A stretch of 64,000 bases of DNA from Patescibacteria group bacterium (GTDB lineage Bacteria > Patescibacteriota > WWE3 > UBA101185 > UBA10185): NCBI GenBank assembly GCA_049322215.1, contig JBMORU010000001.1, positions 452,023-516,022 of the forward strand. The letters are read 5' to 3'. A model generated the notes under the pieces. It searched no databases, was not told the origin of the DNA, and saw nothing but the letters and a program-made list of their open reading frames with translations. Positions 1,013-12,498 of this stretch are shown one piece after another (the stretch's first letter is position 1; each line of letters opens with the position of its first letter). Made by a program: the position numbers and the translations under genes.

Positions 1013-1384
1013 TTAGCTTCTAAAAAGCTTTTTTAGCATACCCATAAGACCGCCGTTTGATTCATTGGAATTGTCAGCTGAATCACCAGACATACCACCC
1101 ATATCAGCAGGTGTATCTGTAGCTGGGGAGTTCATTTCTGGCTGTGCAGGTGTAGCTGCAGGGGTAGGTTCTGCAGGTGCTTGTGTCATAGGATCCATTG
1201 GTGTTGGGTTATTGTTCATTTCATCCATTTCTGGTTCACCTCCTTCACCGTGATTGCTGCATGCACATCCTCCGCCGCAATGACAACCGTTATTGTCACA
1301 TTCGCAATCTTCTTTTTTGCACTTTTCACAAACTATTTTTTTATTATCTACATTGCCACATCCACATGTGTCGCACATTCGCAA
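1013..1384 (-). CDS. small Cys-rich (about 15 Cys in the first 45 aa) plus Met/Pro/Thr-rich protein, putative metal-binding; product unknown
   Basis: ORF track 123 aa: MCDTCGCGNVDNKKIVCEKCKKEDCECDNNGCHCGGGCACSNHGEGG followed by a low-complexity tail with MxxM-type motifs. Terminator hairpin downstream. Confidence 0.6.
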   Translation of the reverse strand: MRMCDTCGCGNVDNKKIVCEKCKKEDCECDNNGCHCGGGCACSNHGEGGEPEMDEMNNNPTPMDPMTQAPAEPTPAATPAQPEMNSPATDTPADMGGMSGDSADNSNESNGGLMGMLKKLFRS

Positions 1385-1493
1385 TCACCTCCTAGTTAAA
1401 TAAAACCAAATACTTTTATACATTCTACATATTTATTCATTTAATGGGAACTCTAGTTTGTTAAAATCGTATAAATTAGCTAAAATCATAGTC

Positions 1494-2093
1494 ATGGAAA
1501 GTACACAACATGAACAACAAAGAGTAGCAGTTTTCGTAGATGTCCAAAATCTATACTACTCGGCCAAGAATTTATTTCAGGCAAAAGTAGATTTTGGAAA
1601 CGTTTTGACCGAATCCGTAGGTCATAGAAGGTTAATTAGAGCATTTGCATATGTAATAAAAGCAGATGTAGGTGCTGAAAAAGAATTTTTTGAGGCTTTA
1701 TACCAAAGAGGCTTTGAAGTGCGTGAAAAAGAACTTCAAATTTTTTATGGTGGAGCTAAAAAAGGTGATTGGGATGTAGGTATTTGCATGGACATTGTAC
1801 GAATGCTTCCAAAAATAGATACCATGATATTAGTTTCGGGGGATGGAGACTACACTGATGTACTTGATTACTCTCGTAGTCAGGGTGTGCGTACAGAAGT
1901 AGTTGCCTTTGCAAAAACTGCTTCTTCACGATTAATAGAAGAAGCTGAGCACTTTTTAGATATGTCTCAAGAACCCGGTAAATTTTTAATCAAAAAATCC
2001 GGTTTTCTAAAAAGGTCTCGTCGCGTAGCCACTACCAAGTCCGATAGTGACAGTGCACCATCTAGCGAAAAAGATGACTCACAAGACTACTAA
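1494..2093 (+). CDS. NYN/LabA-like PIN-fold domain protein
   Basis: The motif AVFVDVQNLYYSAK...ILVSGDGDY is typical of NYN (LabA-like) domains. An ATG at 1494 is preferred over the TTG at 1458. Confidence 0.6.
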   Translation: MESTQHEQQRVAVFVDVQNLYYSAKNLFQAKVDFGNVLTESVGHRRLIRAFAYVIKADVGAEKEFFEALYQRGFEVREKELQIFYGGAKKGDWDVGICMDIVRMLPKIDTMILVSGDGDYTDVLDYSRSQGVRTEVVAFAKTASSRLIEEAEHFLDMSQEPGKFLIKKSGFLKRSRRVATTKSDSDSAPSSEKDDSQDY

Positions 2094-3849
2094 AAAGGCT
2101 AAAAATATTAGAGTAAAGTTAGTCACTTTATTTAATTCTTCAGCATTACAAATGTTGTTGTGGGTTTTTAGTGGGTTGGTTTTGTCTGTTTCTATTTATC
2201 ATGCCTACTATGCTAACAAAATTGTTCCTGGTGTTTACGTTGCAGGCGTTAACGTTGGTAAAATGTCTTACGATCAAGCAATTGGTGCTTTGCAACAAGC
2301 TGAAGAAAATGAATACACTACTGTTTCTTTAGCATATAAAGATAGAGCATTCGAAATTCCATCATCTACAATTAACTTACACTATAACTGGGACGCTTCT
2401 GTAAAACGTGCTTACGAAGTTGGGCGCACAGGAAATATTTACACAGATACAAAGGATAAAATCGCAGGTTTAGTAAAACCATTAAATATTCAAGCATTTT
2501 ATTCTTTCGATGAAGAAACACTAAGTTCTATTTTGTCTAAAATTAGTGGAGAACTAAACCAGGAACCTTCAAACGCCTCATTTGTTTTAAACGAAAATGG
2601 TTTAGAAATCACACCCTCTAAAGACGGCTTGTTAGTAGAAGTAAGCGATTTATATAACAAAGTTGTATATTCGTTTTCAGCTATGGACTTTAAAATTCAA
2701 CAAATCGGTGTAGACCAAGCAAAAGCTGATATTGCTGAAAGTGATTTAGAAAAAATGCGAGAATCAGTAGAAGCTCTAGTATTAGAACCCTTTACCATTA
2801 CCTATGAAGATAAAAAATGGACAATAGATTCTAAAGAAATGTTGAATTTTATTTTGATCAGACGTGAGTCAGGAATTTTGACCTTAACCTTAGATAACGA
2901 TCGCTTTGAAGCATATTTAGATATTTTAGCTCAAGAAATCAACCAACTTCCCAGAGGTCATGTAACAAAAACCGAAGGAGATCGTGTACTAGCTTTCGAG
3001 CTAACTCAAGAAGGTAAAGAGTTAGACGTAAAGCAATTTACCAACGATTTCAAACAAGCCTTGTTTGATGGTAAAAAAACAGTACAGGCAACTGTTAATG
3101 TAGTTTCAGGTCCAAGTGATCCTACAAAATATGGAATCTTAGCCTTACTAGGAGAAGGGCATTCAAAGTTTACAGGTTCTGCAGCAGCCCGTGTTAAAAA
3201 TTTAACTTTGGCCGCAGAAAGAACAAATGGTGTGTTGGTTCCCCCAGGAGGTGTTTATTCATTCAATAATTCTGTGGGTGAAATTAGTGGTGCAAATGGA
3301 TACGACTCAGCTTATATAATTTCTAACGGAAGAACCATTTTGGGAGAAGGTGGTGGTGTTTGTCAAACATCTACCACATTGTACAGAGCAGTTTTAAATT
3401 CCGGCTTACCTATTGTAACAAGATACCCTCACGCGTACCGTGTTTATTACTATGAAATAGATGCTCCTGTGGGCTTTGACGCGTCTATTTACCAGCCTTC
3501 TTTAGATTTTCAGTTTAAAAACGATACGCCTAACTTTATTTTAGTTCAGTCCACGTGGAACACTTCTACTCAGGAACTGGAATTTAAAATTTATGGTACC
3601 CCTGACGGGCGTGAAGTAGAAGTAAGTGAACCAGTTGTTACAAACGTAAAAGCACCTCCTGCGCCTTTGTATCAAGATGATCCTTCTTTGCCCAAAGGTG
3701 TAACTAAACAAGTAGATTTTTCAGCTTGGGGGGCAACGGTTGAATATACACGTACGGTAAAACGTGGTGGAGAAGTAATAAACCAAGAAGTGTATAAAAG
3801 CACTTATCAGCCATGGAGAGCAATTTATTTAGTGGGTACTAAAACCTAG
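2074..3849 (+). CDS. VanW-like domain protein with N-terminal TM anchor and C-terminal G5-like segment
   Basis: N-terminal hydrophobic helix, then GGVYSFNNSVGEI...GGGVCQTSTTLYRAVLNSG (VanW signature), then a KGVTKQVDFSAWGATVEYTRTV G5-like region. The in-frame ATG at 2074 overlaps the upstream gene end by 20 nt. The track start at 2047 is a GTG. Confidence 0.65.
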   Translation: MTHKTTKKAKNIRVKLVTLFNSSALQMLLWVFSGLVLSVSIYHAYYANKIVPGVYVAGVNVGKMSYDQAIGALQQAEENEYTTVSLAYKDRAFEIPSSTINLHYNWDASVKRAYEVGRTGNIYTDTKDKIAGLVKPLNIQAFYSFDEETLSSILSKISGELNQEPSNASFVLNENGLEITPSKDGLLVEVSDLYNKVVYSFSAMDFKIQQIGVDQAKADIAESDLEKMRESVEALVLEPFTITYEDKKWTIDSKEMLNFILIRRESGILTLTLDNDRFEAYLDILAQEINQLPRGHVTKTEGDRVLAFELTQEGKELDVKQFTNDFKQALFDGKKTVQATVNVVSGPSDPTKYGILALLGEGHSKFTGSAAARVKNLTLAAERTNGVLVPPGGVYSFNNSVGEISGANGYDSAYIISNGRTILGEGGGVCQTSTTLYRAVLNSGLPIVTRYPHAYRVYYYEIDAPVGFDASIYQPSLDFQFKNDTPNFILVQSTWNTSTQELEFKIYGTPDGREVEVSEPVVTNVKAPPAPLYQDDPSLPKGVTKQVDFSAWGATVEYTRTVKRGGEVINQEVYKSTYQPWRAIYLVGTKT

Positions 3850-4277
3850 CTTATATCTATAATTACAACTGTTGTTTCGAGCTTTTCCTGCTTATACGAT
3901 GTAATAGTTACACGTTCGTTGCTTTCTTTAGTTTTATATTTGGTGGAAAAAAATACTCCCGCTTCTCCTTGAGATTCAACTTCCCAATTTCTTGAGCCAA
4001 ATACGTTTTTGTAAAATTCTTGTATTTGTTCAGGTGAAATATTTTTGACGCTTAATGTAATTTGATAACCGCTGGCAGCATGTCCGCTGCTTATTTCTAC
4101 AGCATCGTCAGGATAGGGAATTCCTAAGTTATTTAGTGTGCTTTTGCCTTTAACTTGTGTTTGGTCTGTAGCTACACCTACAGGTTTAAAATTTATGAAG
4201 TTTAAATAGGCCACAGTAGCGAATACCGCAATTCCTAACATAACAGCCGCCTGAGCCTGTGTTATTTTAGTATTCAT
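3846..4277 (-). CDS. hypothetical membrane-anchored protein, co-oriented downstream of the giant esterase gene
   Basis: 143 aa with an N-terminal TM helix. Its stop overlaps the VanW-like stop (convergent). Confidence 0.5.
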   Translation of the reverse strand: MNTKITQAQAAVMLGIAVFATVAYLNFINFKPVGVATDQTQVKGKSTLNNLGIPYPDDAVEISSGHAASGYQITLSVKNISPEQIQEFYKNVFGSRNWEVESQGEAGVFFSTKYKTKESNERVTITSYKQEKLETTVVIIDIS

Positions 4278-4291
4278 GGTAAGAGTATATT

Positions 4292-7200
4292 TTAATTTGG
4301 ATATTTAATCCAGGATACTCCCAAACTTTCAGCTACATCTGCTTCATATAAGTCGGCTTCTAAAGAGCCTCTATAAGCTGCTTTACATCTATCTTGTGTA
4401 CAATTTCCAATAGGGAAATGATTTGCTTTTACTGGAACGCAATCTAACCCTGTTTGTGTACATCCTTCTACAATATCGCCGTATCTATTTGTATAGCCGT
4501 TAAATGTAAAGAAACCGTTTTTTTGGCCATCTTCGTCGTATTGTGACCCATCCATATCTTGGTATATTTTTACCCAAATTCTAAATAATGCTGCTGCACT
4601 ATTATTGTTGTCGCAAGTTATTAAATTAGTTTCAGGGTCTACACACCAAAAATGGGGATTTTGCTCGGTTGAAGGTAATAATGCCTGTGTTGGGTCTGTT
4701 TCACCTATACTTTCACCTTGATCAAAGTGAATACCAAAACCAACCATTAATCTTTTTACCCCTGTTGGATCAGAACTTAGCAGGTTATACTCATTTCCTT
4801 CTGTTTGCCATGAGTCTAAGCTGTTTTTACCAATCGGATGAATTCTGTAAGGTGCTAGTTCTGCGGGAGAGTTTGCGAATTCAGGAGGATCCCCAGGCAA
4901 GGGTGCATAGGTGCCTCTATTTGGAAAGTTTAAACGCCCAAAATCAACCCAACCTCCGCCACTGTATGTGCCACAGTTATCAGTTACTACGCCTTGAGAG
5001 GCAGGATCTACGTTATCGCTGTCACAAGCTCTAATTTGTGCATAGGTACTATGAAATCTTGTAAAAGCGCCTAATTGGCCACCAATCTGGTGATAGTGAA
5101 CTCTTGCATCTGTAATTGTGTTTGAACCAAGTAGTAACGATCCCGTAGAGGCATCTCTATCCTTTACGTATAGCCAGTGATTTCCTTCATGTTTAGCAGA
5201 GTTTTCGGTTGTAGTACCAGGAATATAGGATTCAAAGTTTGCGCCTGCTCCCGCAAATGTCTGCCAAGGGTAAGAAATATCTACAGGTTTGCCAACATCA
5301 CTGCCAAACCAGTTGTACACTTCGGTACCAAACACATCGTCCATATCATGAGGATCTTGCTTATGTTCATGATCCCAATGGCATCCTTCTGCAGGATTCC
5401 AAATACCATGCCATTTTCTTGAGTCGTGCTCTATACCTAATTCTTCGCATGAGGGTGCTTCTGCATACGGCGGTGTACCGTTTCCTATTCCTGGAGGGGG
5501 TGGTGCTGTGTCCCCACCATCACCCTCATCGTCTACAGGTGGGGGTGGCGTTGTATCATCGCAAGGTTGTGGGTTTCTTGGGCGCCTTCCAAGAACTCTA
5601 TCTACAAGATTTTGTACTCCTCTAACTGTTCTTCTAACAATGTTATCATCTTCGTAATCTCTACATTCTCGTGGATCCCCATCATCATTATCAGATTCCG
5701 TAACATTTATTGTTGTCTGATCTGTGGCTGTTTCACCAGTAGAATCAGCTATGGTTAAAGACAGTGTATAGGTTCCCGGTGTTTCATATGTATGATTAAT
5801 GTTTACTGCTTGCCCTGTTGTACCGTCGCCAAAATCCCAATTATACGAAACAATATTTCCGTTTGGCGAACTTGATGACGATGCAGATGCGGTTATATCT
5901 AATGGGGCACTTCCGGAAGTTGGAGCTACACTTATTACAGCCTGAATTTCGTTTTCTACAGGAGGTGGTGGGGGTGGAGGTGTTGTTCCTCCACCGTTGT
6001 TATTAAAACAGCTCCAGTGAAACTGTCCTAACCTTTCGCCAATAGTAAGGCCGGGTGCTTCAGAATCAGCTACCCCTAAAAGTCCATTTAAATTATGACC
6101 TACACCTGCGCCTAAACTTAGCTCCCGGCTTGCTTCAGGAACTCCTGCAACAGCTAAATAGTCATTTAAAGTGTTAATGGTTTCTTCACTGCCTAATCCT
6201 TCTACAGACCCCGCTGACATTTTAAATATCATACTTTGTGCAATGTCAGCGCTATCGGAGTTAATGTACTCTTGTATTTCTGGCCAATTGCTTGTAAAAG
6301 CGGGGGACAACGGTGCTATAGAACAAAATAAATCATTGTGTTTCAAACCTAAACGCATTGTACCTTGACCACCCATAGAAAATCCTTGCAAACCTCTTCC
6401 AAATCTATTTGCTACAGTTCTGTAAGTACTGTCAATATGAGGTATTAGTTCGTTAATTAGCATTGATTCCGGACACTCCTTTGTAGTCGCACAGTCACCT
6501 GGCGAGTCAACATACCCTAACCCTTTACCACCATTTGGAAATACCAAAATGGTTGGTGGAATTACGCCTCTTTCAACTAGGTTAATAAGGTTAGATGCAT
6601 TATTTTCAGTGGTACTTAAATAGTTACACTCTTGTCCGTTTACACCATGTAAAAAGTAAATAACAGGATACTTAGTAGTATTGCTTGGATTATCATACCC
6701 TTCGGGTTTGTAAATTGTGTAGCCAACCCAAGTATCCATTATGTTGCTGTAAAAGCTTTGTTTTTCTACTCTTGGTTCTGTTGGATTACACCACTGGGTG
6801 TTCCAAAAGCCGAATGTTTCATCAGAAGGTGGTGGAGGTGTTGTTCCTCCTCCTGAAGAACCCCCTACAAACCACATTTTTGTAGTTTCATCATTTTTAA
6901 AGAAATTTAACAGTTGCTGGCCTACATTGGTTCTACCACTAGCAGAAGGGTGTATACAATCTTGAGCTAAGTCCTGTTGAGTCCAGGAAGTACCATCTTG
7001 CCTTGGACTTTCATTAACCCAAAAATATGGACCCCATGATAACCACGGCGCCTTAACTACTCCAACATTTGGGTCGTAATTTAAGGTGGGATCTCCTTCT
7101 ATTTGACTTTGAATTAGCCACTTAACGCTGAATCCGGTTTCAAAAGCGGTTGGTTCTGGGCTTAAACCCTCCCAATATCGGTACGATCTTGTTCTACTTG

Positions 7201-8017
7201 ATATAAAAGCTTGCTTAATATTTGGGTACTTAGTTTTTAAATTTTGAACAATAAGCTCTAAATCTTCTTCTAGTGCTAAAGCTTTAGTAGGGAAGTTACC
7301 CGAACCCGATTGTGCTTGTTTTACCCAGGCAATTTGAACTTGCTCTGGGGTTATACCCGCACTAGCTAAACGTGCATCTAGTTCGTTCCATGTGGGTGCT
7401 GTTGGGTTTGTCCAAGCTACCGACGTTTGGCCACCTTGCGCGCCATTAACAATTACAAGGTTTTGGTTTAATGTAGAATCTTCTAAAGCCAAACGTGCAA
7501 ACTCTGTAAATTCTGAAGAGGTATTAGACATTCCTACGGAAATTAGCCCTATTTTCCCACTTGCGCTTGGGTTTCCATTAGCATCAAGTGGTACAACTGA
7601 GTTTCCTAGCTCTACACCTTTTGAATTATGTGCTGTAGGTCTAGTGTTTTGCCCATTTTTGTACAAACCACCTCCAATTTCAAATGAAGTTCCTGGCACG
7701 ATAGTAAAAGATTGTCCGTCCATACGTAGGTAGGGTCCTGTTAACTCATTAAGTGGCAAGCTTACATGTTGAAAAATTCCTTCACAAGTTGAAGGTGCCG
7801 TTGCTTGTAGTACGGCTTCACCGGAACTTGCCATACTAATTTGATTGGTACTATTAATACTTTTTGTTTGGTAAGTAATCCAGACACCAAAAATCCCAAG
7901 TATAAATAGCAGAGAAAATGAGAAAAGTGCTGTGTACTTGGTTTTAGACTTACTTTTGGGGGTTTGGAAAATTTCTGTTATTAGCTCATCTTGATTTTCT
8001 AATAGCTGTTCCGACAT
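4292..8017 (-). CDS. giant (1241 aa) membrane-anchored secreted multidomain protein: SGNH/GDSL-like hydrolase region, alpha/beta-hydrolase esterase (GFSMGG), PKD domain, and a Cys/Trp-rich C-terminal domain
   Basis: N-terminal TM helix. DCIHPS (DxxH block V) and GMSNT/VNGAQGG blocks suggest an SGNH fold. KYPVIYFLHGVNGQ...GFSMGGQGT is a GxSxG esterase. SYNWDFGDGTTG...HTYETPGTYTLSLTIADSTGETA is a PKD domain. Poly-Pro/Thr linkers (TTPPPPPPPV). Confidence 0.7.
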   Translation of the reverse strand: MSEQLLENQDELITEIFQTPKSKSKTKYTALFSFSLLFILGIFGVWITYQTKSINSTNQISMASSGEAVLQATAPSTCEGIFQHVSLPLNELTGPYLRMDGQSFTIVPGTSFEIGGGLYKNGQNTRPTAHNSKGVELGNSVVPLDANGNPSASGKIGLISVGMSNTSSEFTEFARLALEDSTLNQNLVIVNGAQGGQTSVAWTNPTAPTWNELDARLASAGITPEQVQIAWVKQAQSGSGNFPTKALALEEDLELIVQNLKTKYPNIKQAFISSRTRSYRYWEGLSPEPTAFETGFSVKWLIQSQIEGDPTLNYDPNVGVVKAPWLSWGPYFWVNESPRQDGTSWTQQDLAQDCIHPSASGRTNVGQQLLNFFKNDETTKMWFVGGSSGGGTTPPPPSDETFGFWNTQWCNPTEPRVEKQSFYSNIMDTWVGYTIYKPEGYDNPSNTTKYPVIYFLHGVNGQECNYLSTTENNASNLINLVERGVIPPTILVFPNGGKGLGYVDSPGDCATTKECPESMLINELIPHIDSTYRTVANRFGRGLQGFSMGGQGTMRLGLKHNDLFCSIAPLSPAFTSNWPEIQEYINSDSADIAQSMIFKMSAGSVEGLGSEETINTLNDYLAVAGVPEASRELSLGAGVGHNLNGLLGVADSEAPGLTIGERLGQFHWSCFNNNGGGTTPPPPPPPVENEIQAVISVAPTSGSAPLDITASASSSSSPNGNIVSYNWDFGDGTTGQAVNINHTYETPGTYTLSLTIADSTGETATDQTTINVTESDNDDGDPRECRDYEDDNIVRRTVRGVQNLVDRVLGRRPRNPQPCDDTTPPPPVDDEGDGGDTAPPPPGIGNGTPPYAEAPSCEELGIEHDSRKWHGIWNPAEGCHWDHEHKQDPHDMDDVFGTEVYNWFGSDVGKPVDISYPWQTFAGAGANFESYIPGTTTENSAKHEGNHWLYVKDRDASTGSLLLGSNTITDARVHYHQIGGQLGAFTRFHSTYAQIRACDSDNVDPASQGVVTDNCGTYSGGGWVDFGRLNFPNRGTYAPLPGDPPEFANSPAELAPYRIHPIGKNSLDSWQTEGNEYNLLSSDPTGVKRLMVGFGIHFDQGESIGETDPTQALLPSTEQNPHFWCVDPETNLITCDNNNSAAALFRIWVKIYQDMDGSQYDEDGQKNGFFTFNGYTNRYGDIVEGCTQTGLDCVPVKANHFPIGNCTQDRCKAAYRGSLEADLYEADVAESLGVSWIKYPN

Positions 8018-8091
8018 ATAATAGTATAGCTATATGATACAAAACATTGCAACCCATCAATATGGGTTTTTGAGTGTGTTTCTCTATAATA

Positions 8092-8130: not shown

Positions 8131-8205
8131 GGCCCCATCGTCTAACGGTTAGGACGGCAGGTTCTCAGTCTGCAAATCGGGGTTCGATTCCCCGTGGGGT
8201 CACCA
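8131..8205 (+). tRNA. tRNA-Glu (anticodon CUC), CCA encoded
   Basis: Hand-folded cloverleaf: acceptor GGCCCCA/TGGGGTC, D-arm GTCT-AACGGTTA-GGAC, anticodon stem GCAGG/TCTGC with loop TTCTCAG (34-36 = CTC), T-arm CGGGG-TTCGATT-CCCCG, then ACCA. TCGTCTA...AGGAC resembles bacterial tRNA-Glu. Confidence 0.75.
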
Positions 8206-8522
8206 TAAGAGACACCTTGCGTGTCAAAGGCAAAAATAGCTTGATACATTGGGTTTATTTGATGGTTCAATGTACCATCATTGTTGTAAGTAAGACCTGA
8301 AGGGAAGATTGAACCAAGTAAGGCTTTTATCTGAGGAACTGTTGATCTCCTGTGTGTTTTCCCTAAATCATTTAACGTATATTTTATAAAATCTGATAAT
8401 TTATTTATGTCGTATTTTCCCAAGTTAGAATCAGATTTTTCCACATGTGCTTTAGACTTGCACGACAGAAGAGTTGAAAACAGATTAGAGGAATTTAGAA
8501 GGCCTGGAAACCTTCATTCTGA

Positions 8523-8769: not shown

Positions 8770-9240
8770 ATGAACAAGAAAATGATAATTCCAAGTCTAG
8801 TACTCGCCGCACTTGTTGGAGTCGGAAGCCATACAGTCGGCACTGTATACGCTCAGGAAAGTGATTCTATACCCACAAGGGTACAGGAAATAGCAGATAG
8901 ATTCAACCTAAATGTGAATGAAGTTTCAGATTTTTTCAAGGAAAAAAGAAAAGCTCGTATGGTTGAAAGACAAGCAGCACGTGAAGAAGCTCTTAATACT
9001 GCTGTCTCTGAAGGAAAGATAACAGAAGAACAAAAAAATACTCTTCTAGCAAGGATGGAAGAAAACAGGCCAGATAGAGAAGCCATGCAAAATCTCTCAA
9101 TGGAAGAAAGGCAGGCACAGAGAGAAGAGCACAAGGCAGGGATGGAAGCTTGGGCGGAAGAAAATGGAATCGATCTTTCAAACCTTAACCTAGGCAGAAA
9201 AGGTTTTGGAGGTGGTAGAAGATTTAATAAGGGAATATAA
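8770..9240 (+). CDS. secreted alpha-helical E/K/R-rich protein with LTXXQ-like motifs (CpxP/Spy-like periplasmic protein, tentative)
   Basis: Signal peptide MNKKMIIPSLVLAALVGVGSHTVGTVYA. Repeated ITEEQK / SMEERQ motifs. RBS AAGGGGG upstream. Confidence 0.5.
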   Translation: MNKKMIIPSLVLAALVGVGSHTVGTVYAQESDSIPTRVQEIADRFNLNVNEVSDFFKEKRKARMVERQAAREEALNTAVSEGKITEEQKNTLLARMEENRPDREAMQNLSMEERQAQREEHKAGMEAWAEENGIDLSNLNLGRKGFGGGRRFNKGI

Positions 9241-9335: not shown

Positions 9336-10583
9336 ATGAAATCATTAATCAGTTTTATAAAATCCAAAAAGCGTTACCTACTCATCGCACTTTCGATTGG
9401 AGGCATAATTTTTACAGGTCAACATCTATTAAGCGAAGATACTTCCTCGGACGCTCAGCAAGAAAGTATAACGGTAACTGTGGAAAGAGGAGCTATATCT
9501 CAAACTGTTTCAGCTTCTGGACAAATTGAAACCGCAAATTATTTAGGTGTGACAACCAGTGTAAATGGAATTGTTAAGGATGTATTTGTTAAGGAAGGAG
9601 ATACAGTTACAAAAGGTCAGCCAATTATGGTAATCACTTTAAACGCGGATGGTGAAGAAAACCTAGCTTCTGCGTGGGGTTCCTATCTTTCAGCAAAAAA
9701 TTCCTTAGAAAGTGCAACAGACAGTTTAAGTTCTTTAGAGTCCGCACTCATAACAGCTAAAGAAGCCTTTCAAGATGAAAAGGAGTCCAACAGCTATCAA
9801 ACTCATGACGAAAGAACTTCCTATACACTTGCAGAAAATACTGTAGAAACAGCTCAAGCAAATTATGACAACAAGCTCGATGAAATTAACCAAAAACAAG
9901 TTGCGTTGAATAAAGCGTGGTTAACTTACCAAGCACAATCTCCTACAATTGTTGCACCTAGCAGCGGTATTGTTGCAAATATTGTAGTTGTTGAAGGTAT
10001 GGATATTACTAACTCATTATCAGAAAGGACATCTTCAACTGTTGCTTCCATTAAAAACGAGGGAACACCGATTGCAACACTAAATATTAGCGAAGTGGAC
10101 ATAAATAAAGTAAAGGTTGGTCAGAAAGTTGGAGTTACATTGAACAGTAACAGTGATGAGCTGTTTATGGCTACTGTAGTAGGAATAGATAAGATTGGTA
10201 GTACTTCAAGTGGCGTATCTAATTATCCAGTGATTGTTAAATTTGACGAAGGATCCGACCTAGTACTTCCTAACATGGGCGTAGATGCAGAAATAATTAT
10301 CCAAGAAAAGGTTGATATTTTGTATGTACCAAGCTCTGCAATAAGTTCAGTTAGAGGGAGTACAGTTGTTAACGTAGTTGATGGTGTTACAGTAAGACCT
10401 GTAGAAGTAGAAACAGGCATTTCGACAAATGAATATACAGAAATAACCTCAGGTGTAGAACAAGGTACAGTTATACAGATAGACACGTTACCGACAACAG
10501 GATTTACCTCATCTAGTAATGACCAAGAAGGCTCTGGGGGAAGACCAGGTTTGGTACCATTTAGTGGTGGTGGAAGGAGATAA
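9336..10583 (+). CDS. HlyD/MacA-family periplasmic adaptor (membrane fusion protein)
   Basis: N-terminal TM, biotinyl/lipoyl-like hairpin GIVKDVFVKEGDTVTKGQPIMVI, long coiled-coil, and beta-barrel motifs. Located upstream of ABC ATPase and permease genes. Confidence 0.75.
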   Translation: MKSLISFIKSKKRYLLIALSIGGIIFTGQHLLSEDTSSDAQQESITVTVERGAISQTVSASGQIETANYLGVTTSVNGIVKDVFVKEGDTVTKGQPIMVITLNADGEENLASAWGSYLSAKNSLESATDSLSSLESALITAKEAFQDEKESNSYQTHDERTSYTLAENTVETAQANYDNKLDEINQKQVALNKAWLTYQAQSPTIVAPSSGIVANIVVVEGMDITNSLSERTSSTVASIKNEGTPIATLNISEVDINKVKVGQKVGVTLNSNSDELFMATVVGIDKIGSTSSGVSNYPVIVKFDEGSDLVLPNMGVDAEIIIQEKVDILYVPSSAISSVRGSTVVNVVDGVTVRPVEVETGISTNEYTEITSGVEQGTVIQIDTLPTTGFTSSSNDQEGSGGRPGLVPFSGGGRR

Positions 10584-10586
10584 TAC

Positions 10587-11291
10587 GTGCTCGAGGTTAA
10601 AAACGTATCAAAAATATACGAAAATGGTTCAGTTAAAACCATAGCCTTAGATGATGTTAGCTTCAAAATTGAAAAGGGTGAATTTGTTGCAATTATAGGG
10701 CCGTCTGGTTCAGGAAAATCCACTTTAATGCATATACTTGGCGCCCTTGATATTCCCACTTCAGGTGAATACTTACTTAATAATACAAATGTTGAACACA
10801 TGGACGACGATGAACTGGCAGATATAAGAAATAAGGAAATTGGGTTTGTATTCCAAGCGTACAACCTGCTTGCTAGAAGTTCTGCATTAAAGAATGTTTC
10901 TTTACCTATGATGTACGCAGGAATACCCAAAAAGGAACGCTATTATAGGGCTGTTAGTGCTTTAGAGGCAGTCGAGCTTGGAGACAAACTTAATAATGAG
11001 CCTAATCAGCTGTCAGGGGGGCAAAAACAGCGTGTTGCTATTGCTCGCGCATTATCTATGAACCCAAGCATCTTACTAGCAGATGAACCAACTGGAAATT
11101 TACCTACAAAACAAAGTGCAGAAATAATGGATATTTTCGATACCTTGAATATTAAAGGGCATACAGTACTTGTTATTACGCATGAAGATGAAATAGCAGC
11201 AAGAGCAAAAAGGGTAATTACTTTAGTAGATGGTAAAGTGGTTAGCGATAAAAAAGGTAAACACGAAAGGGTTGAACATGCGATTAATTGA
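10587..11291 (+). CDS. ABC transporter ATP-binding protein (MacB/LolD-like)
   Basis: Walker A GPSGSGKST, ABC signature LSGGQKQRVAIARAL, Walker B LLADEPTGNL. GTG start 4 nt after the adaptor stop. Confidence 0.85.
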   Translation: MLEVKNVSKIYENGSVKTIALDDVSFKIEKGEFVAIIGPSGSGKSTLMHILGALDIPTSGEYLLNNTNVEHMDDDELADIRNKEIGFVFQAYNLLARSSALKNVSLPMMYAGIPKKERYYRAVSALEAVELGDKLNNEPNQLSGGQKQRVAIARALSMNPSILLADEPTGNLPTKQSAEIMDIFDTLNIKGHTVLVITHEDEIAARAKRVITLVDGKVVSDKKGKHERVEHAIN

Positions 11292-12498
11292 ACTTTTTGA
11301 AGAAAGTATTTCGGTCTTAACCACAAACAGATTAAGAACGGGTCTTTCCGCACTCGGAATAATAATTGGTATAGGGTCTGTAATTACTTTAATGACTTTA
11401 GGGCAAGCAAGCCAACAAAGTGTTACTGAAAATATACAATCTTTGGGAGCTAATTTGTTAACAATATCTCCAGGATCTCAACAAGGGTTTGGATTTGTTA
11501 GAAATTCCAATAATAGCGTAACTACACTAACAAACGAAGACGCTAAAGCTATAGCAAAGTCACAAAGATTAACAACCATAGACAAAGTTGCTGCAAGCTA
11601 TTCGGCCAATTCACAAGTCTCTTATGGTTCAAACAACGATAATATTCAAATTGAAGGTGTAACAGCGGAATATTTTTCACTAAGAAATATTGATTTGCTA
11701 CTTGGACAACAAATTACAGAGCAGGACAATTTGCTTGTAAGAAAAAATGCAGTAATCAGCCAAGATGTTGTTGATGAGCTTATGGAAGGCACCGCTAACC
11801 CTATTGGCGAAACAATCAGGATAAGTGGGAATACATTTACAATAATTGGTGTTACAGAAGGACAATCTGGCTTTGGAGGATCAAGTAGTGTAATTTATAT
11901 TCCTCTTAGTACAGCACAAAATATCTTATTCGGTGTAAGTCATGTTAGTTCAATTTATGTAGGTGCAGAAGATGAAAACCAAATGGAGGCAGCTGAAAAT
12001 CAACTAGGTTGGCTTCTTCTAGAGTTACATGGGCTAGATACACCAACAGATGCTGACTTTTCTATTTCATCGCAAGGAGACATTCTAGAAACTGTTGGGG
12101 AGGTAACACAAACATTTACAACACTTTTAACAGGAATAGCTGCTATTTCGCTAGTTGTTGGTGGTATTGGAATTATGAATATAATGCTTGTTACTGTAAC
12201 CGAAAGAACAAGAGAAATCGGTATTAGAAAAGCAATCGGCGCTAAAAGAAAAGTAATAATACTACAATTTTTGATTGAATCTGTTCTTTTAACAGTAACC
12301 GGTGGATTTATAGGTGTAATTCTGGGTTTAGGTTTGTCCTTTATACTTACAAATTCAATGTCCCTACCAAACGTTGTTTCCTATAACGCAATTGGTCTTG
12401 CGGTTATGGTGTCTTGCATAATCGGCGTGGTATTTGGAATTTATCCTGCTTACAAGGCTTCAAAATTGCAACCTATTGAAGCACTAAGATACGAGTAA
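11278..12498 (+). CDS. ABC transporter permease, FtsX/MacB-like, with periplasmic domain
   Basis: MRLIELFEESISVL...4 TM helices with a large periplasmic loop. ATG at 11278 overlaps the ATPase stop, indicating translational coupling. Confidence 0.75.
   Translation: MRLIELFEESISVLTTNRLRTGLSALGIIIGIGSVITLMTLGQASQQSVTENIQSLGANLLTISPGSQQGFGFVRNSNNSVTTLTNEDAKAIAKSQRLTTIDKVAASYSANSQVSYGSNNDNIQIEGVTAEYFSLRNIDLLLGQQITEQDNLLVRKNAVISQDVVDELMEGTANPIGETIRISGNTFTIIGVTEGQSGFGGSSSVIYIPLSTAQNILFGVSHVSSIYVGAEDENQMEAAENQLGWLLLELHGLDTPTDADFSISSQGDILETVGEVTQTFTTLLTGIAAISLVVGGIGIMNIMLVTVTERTREIGIRKAIGAKRKVIILQFLIESVLLTVTGGFIGVILGLGLSFILTNSMSLPNVVSYNAIGLAVMVSCIIGVVFGIYPAYKASKLQPIEALRYE

Follow-up and report, generated by a model that had tools for sequence, protein, structure and literature searches.

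A predicted surface protein of a Patescibacteria bacterium that joins an SGNH-type hydrolase, a CE1-type esterase and an orphan histidine-rich domain

The window analyzed here is a stretch of 64,000 nucleotides from contig JBMORU010000001.1 of a Patescibacteria group bacterium (assembly GCA_049322215.1). It contains a gene on the minus strand (4292..8017) that encodes a multi-module protein of 1241 amino acids (NCBI MFZ5424635.1, annotated as 'PKD domain-containing protein'). The gene is followed on the same strand by a small gene for a protein of 143 amino acids (3846..4277), which is met on the plus strand by a convergent gene for a VanW-like protein (2047..3849, 600 amino acids as the longest open reading frame, ORF). 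All three ORFs, with a membrane anchor in the large protein, had been described in an original prediction made from the nucleotide sequence, and all three were recovered. The analysis concentrated on the 1241-residue protein, its modules, the occurrence of these modules in other organisms and the functions they might serve.

Module order and integrity of the gene

The modules follow one another in the order N-terminal membrane anchor, divergent SGNH hydrolase (hereafter the N-domain), esterase of carbohydrate esterase family 1 (CE1; PF00756), a single PKD domain, an acidic proline-rich linker and a C-terminal domain (C-domain) of 393 residues. Above the Pfam cut-offs, only the esterase (residues 424-573) and the PKD domain (residues 697-772) are assigned, and Pfam reveals neither a cohesin nor a dockerin module in the protein. 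The one hydrophobic segment found by a hydropathy scan comprises residues 27-50 (7868..7939, minus strand); its mean Kyte-Doolittle value is 2.21 and it is preceded by the lysine-rich stretch KSKSKTK. We infer that it functions as an N-in signal anchor, which would place the remainder of the protein outside the cell. The PKD domain (5702..5929, minus strand) scores 71.6 bits with PKD_4 (cut-off 27) and 49.5 bits with PKD (cut-off 23.5) and is located between GGGTTPPPPPPP and acidic linkers. Poly-Pro/Thr linkers lie at residues 394, 680, 824 and 839; both they and the PKD domain had been predicted. Residues 776-848 (5474..5692, minus strand) form, by their composition, the acidic proline-rich linker, which contains two cysteines. 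In the original prediction this segment was included in a Cys/Trp-rich C-terminal domain of 470 residues. The domain exists but consists of 393 residues (849-1241) and is better described as rich in His, Cys and Trp. No paralog of any module of the protein was found elsewhere in the 64-kb window.

Judged from the sequences compared, the fusion is real and under purifying selection. The exact 1241-residue protein is on record in an NCBI metagenome-assembled genome (MAG) of Patescibacteria, on a contig of 1,112,869 bp, and in a Logan assembly. The ORF lies whole inside the contigs of both assemblies; the Logan contig terminates at a tRNA gene 186 nt upstream of the large gene, beyond the ORF. 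In a different sample (ERR15087771), a 6.4-kb contig (L009) carries an ortholog, and the large gene, the 143-residue gene, the VanW gene and a gene with an NYN domain occur in the same order. The identity between the window protein and the L009 protein is 97.0% in the N-domain, 97.5% in CE1, 100% in the PKD domain, 89% in the linker and 96.7% in the C-domain. Synonymous and replacement codon differences amount to 53/9, 20/7, 2/0, 11/8 and 41/13, respectively, which identifies the linker of residues 776-848 as the fastest-evolving segment, and all candidate catalytic residues are retained in the ortholog.

An origin of the long ORF by chimeric assembly, or its decay as a functionless fusion, might be suspected from the confinement of the full module combination to one protein cluster (see below) and from the end of one assembly's contig so close to the gene, but the intact ORF in two assemblies, the same junctions at about 97% identity in an independent sample, the synonymous excess in each module and a GC content at third codon positions (GC3) that matches the remaining genome leave this explanation next to no probability. 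As far as sequence data go it is refuted, and the concern in the original prediction that the ORF could be chimeric is settled by the same observations. The GC3 of the gene is 0.27, compared with 0.255 +/- 0.042 for 24 other ORFs, and its composition thus provides no sign of recent horizontal transfer. The gene is situated in the GC-richest part of the window, where the excess GC stems from the amino-acid content.

Two esterase modules and the orphan C-terminal domain

The N-domain (residues 64-390; 6848..7828, minus strand) was assigned by alignment motifs together with an AlphaFold2 model and Foldseek comparisons, as it has no sequence match in Pfam, NCBIfam or the PDB. The curated sequence models Lipase_GDSL, Lipase_GDSL_2 and SASA in Pfam and NCBIfam do not match the window protein, and 3 of 45 members of the N-domain family have a Lipase_GDSL match, at E 0.066. 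The family consists of at least 807 proteins, mostly stand-alone and 340-450 amino acids long, many of them from Chloroflexota. In an alignment of 45 sequences, G162-M163-S164-N165, N191 and the Asp, Cys and His of D353-C-I-H356 are invariant and G192-A193 nearly so. Ser164 (GMSN), Asp353 and His356 (DCIH) are the candidate catalytic residues, and Asn191-Gly192 are candidates for the oxyanion hole.

Support for this assignment was obtained from the structural model, in which confidence is high (predicted local distance difference test score, pLDDT, 89.9; predicted template-modeling score, pTM, 0.90). The Ser164 motif follows strand 92-99 and opens helix 101-115 (segment numbering), N191/G192-A193 come after the second core strand and DCIH is located just ahead of the last long helix. 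A Foldseek comparison of the model with the PDB yielded 12 SGNH structures at probabilities of 0.99-1.0 and E values of 1e-4 to 3e-3, among them, at 1.0, 4s1p, 2apj, 7br2, 4xvh (CE2), 3mil, 7pzh (sialate esterase), 1zmb (acetylxylan esterase) and 5b5s (CE3); the best matches include an isoamyl-acetate esterase. The N-domain is therefore an SGNH hydrolase by fold and catalytic motifs and belongs to a divergent clade outside every curated SGNH sequence family, and the prediction of an SGNH-like region with a DxxH block holds.

With the SGNH O-acetylesterases of CE2 (4xvh) and CE3 (5b5s), the CE6-like enzymes (the putative acetylxylan esterase 1zmb, and 2apj) and the sialate esterase (7pzh), the N-domain shares the predicted fold, a serine that opens the first helix (G-M-S-N) and a DxxH motif ahead of the last helix. 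The GMSN motif appears to resemble the GQSN motif of CE6/SASA-type enzymes. The N-domain differs from these enzymes in its size of about 325 residues, compared with a core of about 200, and in its lack of membership in a sequence profile; it alone possesses an extra N-terminal beta region with an invariant GGLY..G.N.RP..H motif. A specificity of the Ape type is not indicated, since Ape1 (8gkd) appears at rank 33 with E 0.029, behind CE2, CE3, CE6-type and sialate esterases.

The second module (residues 402-676; 5990..6814, minus strand) is a CE1-type alpha/beta-hydrolase esterase, as revealed by Pfam, its PDB relatives and alignment. It matches PF00756 with 61.1 bits, compared with a cut-off of 22, in agreement with the predicted GxSxG esterase. 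The match covers only positions 1-149 of the 251 positions of the profile, and for this reason the catalytic triad was checked in an alignment of 84 sequences. The serine of the nucleophile elbow, GFSMG at residue 545, aligns with the elbows of 6mot and 5vol; this Ser547 is present in 84 of 84 sequences and His641 in 83 of 84. The acid position is occupied by Asp in 61, Glu in 7 and Gly in 13 sequences. The window protein contains Glu606, and the change from Asp to Glu is common to its closest CE1 relatives on Patescibacteria contigs. Hence, as far as the alignment reveals, the triad Ser547/His641/Glu606 is complete with a conservative replacement of the acid. An incomplete triad in either esterase would have spoken against the original prediction, and both sets proved complete in the alignments. 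Its nearest relatives in the PDB, the feruloyl and acetyl-xylan esterases 6mot, 5vol, XynZ (1jjf) and 7b5v, match with E values of about 1e-17 to 1e-19, and the best NCBIfam match is a bifunctional xylanase/feruloyl esterase.

Modular CE1 esterases with the same PF00756 fold include XynZ (1jjf) and XynY (1gkk) of Clostridium thermocellum, the Bacteroides intestinalis enzymes 6mot and 5vol, and 7b5v of Dysgonomonas. The window module has in common with them the GxSxG elbow with invariant Ser and His as well as an extracellular, modular context that includes linkers and accessory modules, and relatives of the window protein, like these enzymes, are associated with cohesin or dockerin-like tethering. 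In contrast to them, the acid is Glu instead of Asp, neither a glycoside hydrolase nor a known carbohydrate-binding module is a partner, and a transmembrane helix appears to attach the protein directly to the Patescibacteria cell.

The C-domain (residues 849-1241; 4295..5473, minus strand) is an orphan. It was characterized by alignment and an AlphaFold2 model and contains 15 His, 10 Cys and 11 Trp residues. Across 43 members no Pfam match was obtained even at E<=5, nor was there an NCBIfam match, and the PDB yielded no match by sequence or by profile. The model has a beta-rich body (pLDDT 86.6, pTM 0.89), with no significant Foldseek match in the PDB or BFVD. Conservation was determined with 102 sequences, which are a median 31% identical to the window protein. 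At this distance, C857, H864, H870, C879, H883, H885, E938, K942, H943, H976, H989, S990, C998, G1027, W1070, C1125 and C1135 are conserved to at least 97% and C1186 and C1193 to 96-98%. The seven conserved histidines, together with the Glu, Lys and Ser, are found mainly in the first approximately 150 residues of the domain, and the conserved cysteines probably form three to four disulfides. Such a His-rich set, unlike the pattern of a simple binding module, suggests an extracellular metal or active site.

Several enzymes with similar motifs were considered: lysyl oxidase, with its C-H-x-H-x-H copper motif; amidohydrolase-type binuclear sites (HxH...K...H...H); M23/LAS zinc peptidases; alpha-carbonic anhydrase; and multicopper oxidases. 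None of them is among the listed Pfam or Foldseek matches, and the likeness of the C-domain to these enzymes is at the motif level only.

Relatives and neighboring genes

Residues 61-1241 were compared by an exhaustive HMMER search with 1.84 billion cluster representatives, and the modules were mapped on the matches. All modules together occur only in the protein's own cluster, which agrees with the initial impression of an unfamiliar domain combination. A homolog of the full architecture with at least about 30% identity should outscore the listed protein composed of CE1 and the C-domain (793 bits) and would consequently have been listed.

Parts of the architecture recur in other combinations. 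In a protein of 803 amino acids (P0192/L010), CE1 is fused to a C-domain 67% identical to that of the window. In MAGs of the Microgenomates type (L007, L008, L012), the two families are encoded by directly adjoining, divergent genes. These proteins exhibit the same two families and the same link as the window protein, with C-domains 58-67% identical to it, but lack the SGNH and PKD modules. In Candidatus Sumerlaeota (P0288, MCX7016976.1), a DLH/BD-FAE/AXE1-like hydrolase is followed by CE1 and then by an SGNH module of the N-domain family. The same CE1 and SGNH families are thus united in one secreted or anchored polypeptide as in the window, but the module order is different, there is neither a PKD domain nor a C-domain, and the organism belongs to a different phylum. 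The N-domain is fused to PKD in P0228, P0318 and P0275, CE1 is fused to PKD in P0210, and tandem pairs of N-domains also occur. At three further loci (L023, L034, L052), an N-domain gene is located directly upstream of a C-domain gene. This shuffled pattern of fusions and adjacencies speaks for a common substrate of the three families.

Two of the Microgenomates-type loci suggest a means of attachment that the window protein does not use. In L007, the gene that comes after the esterase encodes a membrane-anchored protein with a Cohesin domain (30.4 bits, above the Pfam cut-off); the equivalent gene of L008 reaches 22.4 bits, just below the cut-off. The CE1 esterases of these contigs (L007:4095-5998, L008:3108-5215) end, by eye, in duplicated dockerin-like repeats, e.g. 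DYNGDNLITYSDF...DLFDYNAF, which Pfam does not call at E<=0.1. The two loci may represent a minimal cohesin-dockerin surface tether in Patescibacteria, in contrast to the window protein, which anchors itself and contains neither module. A literature search on carbohydrate esterases or cohesin-dockerin systems in the candidate phyla radiation (CPR)/Patescibacteria disclosed nothing specific to these families.

The C-domain family, with more than 100 loci, is distributed among Chloroflexota (class Anaerolineae) and a few Patescibacteria. Members without any other domain are autonomous anchored or secreted proteins of 470-600 amino acids, and such stand-alone members carry an N-terminal hydrophobic segment of their own and a PT-rich linker. 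An apparent C-domain protein of 1039 amino acids in L070 was an artifact of ORF extension through stop codons. In a divergent subgroup on Anaerolineae-type metagenome contigs (L046:8738-11155, L103, L087, L091, L075, L117, L127), the proteins are about 670-816 amino acids long. Their N-terminal extension of about 400 residues consists of a cohesin-like region, a CarboxypepD_reg-like domain and two dockerin-type repeats, all with Pfam matches below the cut-offs (Dockerin_1, 18.6-19.3 bits in the L046- and L103-type proteins). Single Patescibacteria MAGs can contain two paralogous C-domain genes, as in L011 and L012 (JBGTEY010000009.1 / JBGTEY010000010.1), of which only L012 adjoins a CE1 gene; the proteins WAU07_02090 and WAU07_02730 of a 'Microgenomates group bacterium' are a further paralogous pair.

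The surroundings of C-domain genes in other genomes were also inspected. A Fur-family regulator and a ZIP metal transporter are encoded within approximately 3-4 kb of the C-domain gene on two Patescibacteria contigs (L002:12653-14013, L008:1550-2668). A cupredoxin gene and a DsbD/thioredoxin gene are near the C-domain gene in L002, and L005 contains a triple-DsbA gene. These neighbors could hint at metal or disulfide dependence, or they could merely reflect shared synteny. In 11 Chloroflexota loci (L005, L013-L016, L018-L020, L023, L026, L034), a gene for a methyltransferase-like membrane protein of about 270 amino acids lies just upstream of the C-domain gene. These loci span C-domain clades that are 31%-50% identical to the window protein, and the gene is absent from the Patescibacteria loci. 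On the whole, the conserved neighbors reflect mostly synteny within one Chloroflexota clade, and none was consistent enough to be used.

In the window itself, the stop codon of the large gene is separated from the start of the small gene by 14 nt with no terminator-like site in the gap; the two genes are probably co-transcribed, as had been proposed. The 143-residue protein consists of an N-terminal hydrophobic segment (residues 7-30) and about 110 further residues. It has no match in Pfam or NCBIfam, no relatives in the JGI metagenome contigs, and is unrelated to the small neighbors in L002, L007 and L008. The only relative found is in L009, which makes it a species-level orphan.

The 3' end of the small gene overlaps the 3' end of the VanW gene by 4 nt. 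The VanW gene, its VanW and G5 domains and its convergent orientation are as first described; its start, placed at 2047, is probably 27 nt too far upstream, since the gene call in an independent assembly yields 591 amino acids and a start at 2074. The protein has one hydrophobic segment (residues 32-51) followed by domains that all exceed the Pfam cut-offs: PG_binding_4 (80.4 bits, two stretches), VanW (136.1 bits) and G5 (25.7 bits). In 2024, VanW domains were shown to form a second peptidoglycan L,D-transpeptidase family (PMC11348318). Clostridioides difficile Ldt4 has the architecture transmembrane segment, PG4, VanW, G5 and a Cys-His-Asp triad; the catalytic cysteines of Ldt4 and Ldt5 are C286 and C298, and L,D-transpeptidase activity was detected in only 3 of 7 VanW proteins that came from other organisms (PMC11348318). 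The neighbor in the window is identical to Ldt4 in architecture and possesses a single cysteine, C439, in the conserved GGGVCQ, with H462 and D478 nearby. We take it as a candidate VanW-type L,D-transpeptidase, with a housekeeping role in cross-linking that would be unrelated to the esterases.

A conserved locus composed of VanW, the small protein and the esterase was considered and dismissed, since the adjacency occurs only in the approximately 97% identical L009 and at no other C-domain locus. Confinement to so close a relative provides no evidence for the functional cell-surface locus including VanW that had been proposed.

Upstream of the large gene, a promoter-like pair, TTGCAA and TATACT with an 18-nt spacer (8023..8052, minus strand; 9 of 12 consensus matches), ends 5 nt before the ATG at 8017. 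It could imply a leaderless mRNA or one with a very short leader. Such sites are no commoner in the region than in shuffled sequence, and the pair is weak evidence. Immediately upstream of it, a terminator-like hairpin is found at 8068-8051 of the minus strand, as a consensus match only. A tRNA-Glu(CTC) gene (8131..8205, plus strand) precedes the large gene; an ORF of 100 amino acids antisense over it (8142-8444, minus strand) is probably spurious. Further upstream, a small, secreted, coiled-coil-like protein (8770-9240) precedes a trio that is MacAB-like by appearance (9336-12498, plus strand) and comprises a membrane-fusion/HlyD-like protein (415 amino acids), an ABC ATPase (234 amino acids) and an FtsX-type permease (422 amino acids); the small coiled-coil-like protein, the only one of the four scanned, has no Pfam match. 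On the other side of the VanW gene, the longest ORF of the NYN-domain gene (1458-2093, plus strand; 211 amino acids) overlaps the longest VanW ORF by 47 nt; with the independent gene calls of 199 and 591 amino acids, an overlap of 20 nt remains. An ORF at 1013-1384 (minus strand; 123 amino acids) has a very Cys-rich, metallothionein-reminiscent N-terminal half (MRMCDTCGCGNVDNKKIVCEKCKKEDCECDNNGCHCGGGCACSNHG...) and an acidic tail rich in Pro, Thr and Met, with no meaningful Pfam match.

Proposed function and alternatives

The modules and their complete sets of catalytic residues suggest that the protein contributes two active extracellular esterases, of which we are quite confident. In the proposed model, the protein would be a type-II membrane protein held by one N-terminal helix in the membrane of a monoderm Patescibacteria cell, with the enzyme in an extracytoplasmic position, and the Pro/Thr-rich linkers and the PKD spacer would string the three functional modules outward. 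The SGNH module (Ser164/His356/Asp353) would most likely remove O-acetyl groups from glycans, and the CE1 module (Ser547/His641/Glu606), of the feruloyl/acetyl-xylan esterase type, would remove feruloyl or acetyl esters. The His-rich C-domain would most likely be a metal-dependent catalytic module, or would at least engage the substrate, on the same polymer. According to this model, CE1 and the C-domain, which are encoded by separate neighboring genes in related Patescibacteria (in one case beside the cohesin-domain membrane protein), have been merged here with the SGNH module. The likely purpose would be the de-esterification of complex acylated glycans at the cell surface, providing sugars or acyl groups for an organism of very limited metabolism. 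We give even chances to this reading as a whole, i.e., an enzyme anchored at the surface that removes acyl groups from polysaccharides, with a C-domain that acts on or grips the same polymer.

Several observations weigh against it. The activity and substrate of every module are deduced from sequences and models. The structural matches of the SGNH module have low TM-scores (0.3-0.42), owing to large insertions in the N-domain, and thus give no information on substrate specificity. CE1-type folds also include polyester and polyhydroxyalkanoate (PHA) depolymerases and other esterases. In accordance with this range, the CE1 module has weak NCBIfam matches to an extracellular short-chain PHA depolymerase (E 2.3e-5) and to esterase_phb, and weak PDB matches to cutinases and enzymes of the polyethylene terephthalate (PET) hydrolase type (E about 2e-3). 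Furthermore, neither esterase is found in the fetched flanks at about 30 of 39 genome loci and 79 of 80 metagenome loci of the C-domain, which shows that the C-domain is not strictly dependent on the esterases.

The C-domain might be catalytic, although we rate this somewhat below an even chance. More tentatively still, it could be the first representative of a novel enzyme family that has a previously unseen fold and a mono- or binuclear metal center formed by His864/870/883/885/943/976/989, Glu938 and Lys942. It would act on the same acylated polymers as CE1 and SGNH, for instance as a hydrolase, lyase or oxidase of a new carbohydrate-active class. Alternatively, the C-domain could be a non-catalytic carbohydrate- or host-binding or adhesion module that targets both esterases and whose His and Cys residues hold a structural metal and disulfides. 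Targeting modules are typically distal in modular carbohydrate-active enzymes, and the C-domain indeed occupies the distal position after PKD and the linkers; its beta-rich body and its three to four conserved Cys pairs, which suggest a disulfide-stabilized extracellular module, would also fit. Arguing against this possibility is the invariance of seven His residues together with Glu938, Lys942, Ser990 and Arg987 at a median identity of 31%, which is far above what is usual for binding modules. In addition, members of the family occur autonomously, with no other domain that they could target, and some contain dockerin-like repeats, albeit below the Pfam cut-off; such repeats usually mark the enzyme subunits of such systems. 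We consider a mere binding function, as the original prediction had it, unlikely in view of a conservation pattern that looks catalytic or metal-binding; it would be compatible with the proposed function of the remainder of the protein.

About equally improbable is a function in the remodeling of the cell wall or of a host envelope, which had been suggested as the deacetylation of polysaccharide of the host or of the cell itself. The esterases would then deacylate peptidoglycan or surface glycans, either its own or those of a host on which the bacterium might live as an episymbiont, together with the VanW enzyme. The protein is surface-anchored by prediction, its gene adjoins that of the candidate L,D-transpeptidase, the SGNH-fold matches include the peptidoglycan O-acetylesterase Ape1 at the rank given above and the sialate O-acetylesterase, and the gene resides on a 1.1-Mb contig of a Patescibacteria MAG. 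The occurrence of the C-domain family in both Patescibacteria and Chloroflexota would be consistent with an interaction or an exchange of genes between the two groups. However, VanW is adjacent only in the near-identical relative, the nearest relatives of the CE1 module are feruloyl and acetyl-xylan esterases of plant-cell-wall degradation, the SGNH family is fused to CE1 and to BD-FAE/AXE1-like esterases in Sumerlaeota, and both orphan families consist mostly of stand-alone Chloroflexota proteins. Remodeling is therefore possible but not favored over the removal of acyl groups from polysaccharides.

Least probable among these functions, with only a slight chance, is that the substrate is a polyester or lipid-like compound, such as PHA, cutin/suberin-like polyesters or lipids, instead of a polysaccharide. 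The weak PHA depolymerase, esterase_phb and cutinase/PET-hydrolase-type matches would agree with it, as would phospholipases and lysophospholipases among the SGNH matches, but the former are 10-13 orders of magnitude weaker than those to feruloyl esterases, and the top SGNH matches are carbohydrate esterases.

The CE1 and PKD modules are textbook cases, and the SGNH module forms a divergent branch within a familiar fold; the overall architecture is a new recombination of modules that also combine elsewhere, and as a whole the protein would work in the manner of the modular CE1 and SGNH carbohydrate esterases known from plant-biomass degraders. The analysis has exposed two sizeable extracellular families for which neither Pfam nor NCBIfam has a model, those of the N-domain and the C-domain. 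The functions that relatives distribute over separate, neighboring and possibly cohesin-tethered genes are united in a single anchored polypeptide in this small-genome Patescibacteria lineage. The piece that could be new in kind is the C-domain family, which unites a confidently predicted structure without detectable relative with an enzyme-like His-rich site, and for which the genetic links to esterases suggest concrete candidate substrates. If the C-domain is catalytic, it would represent a new enzyme family for polysaccharide breakdown in soils and wastewater communities.

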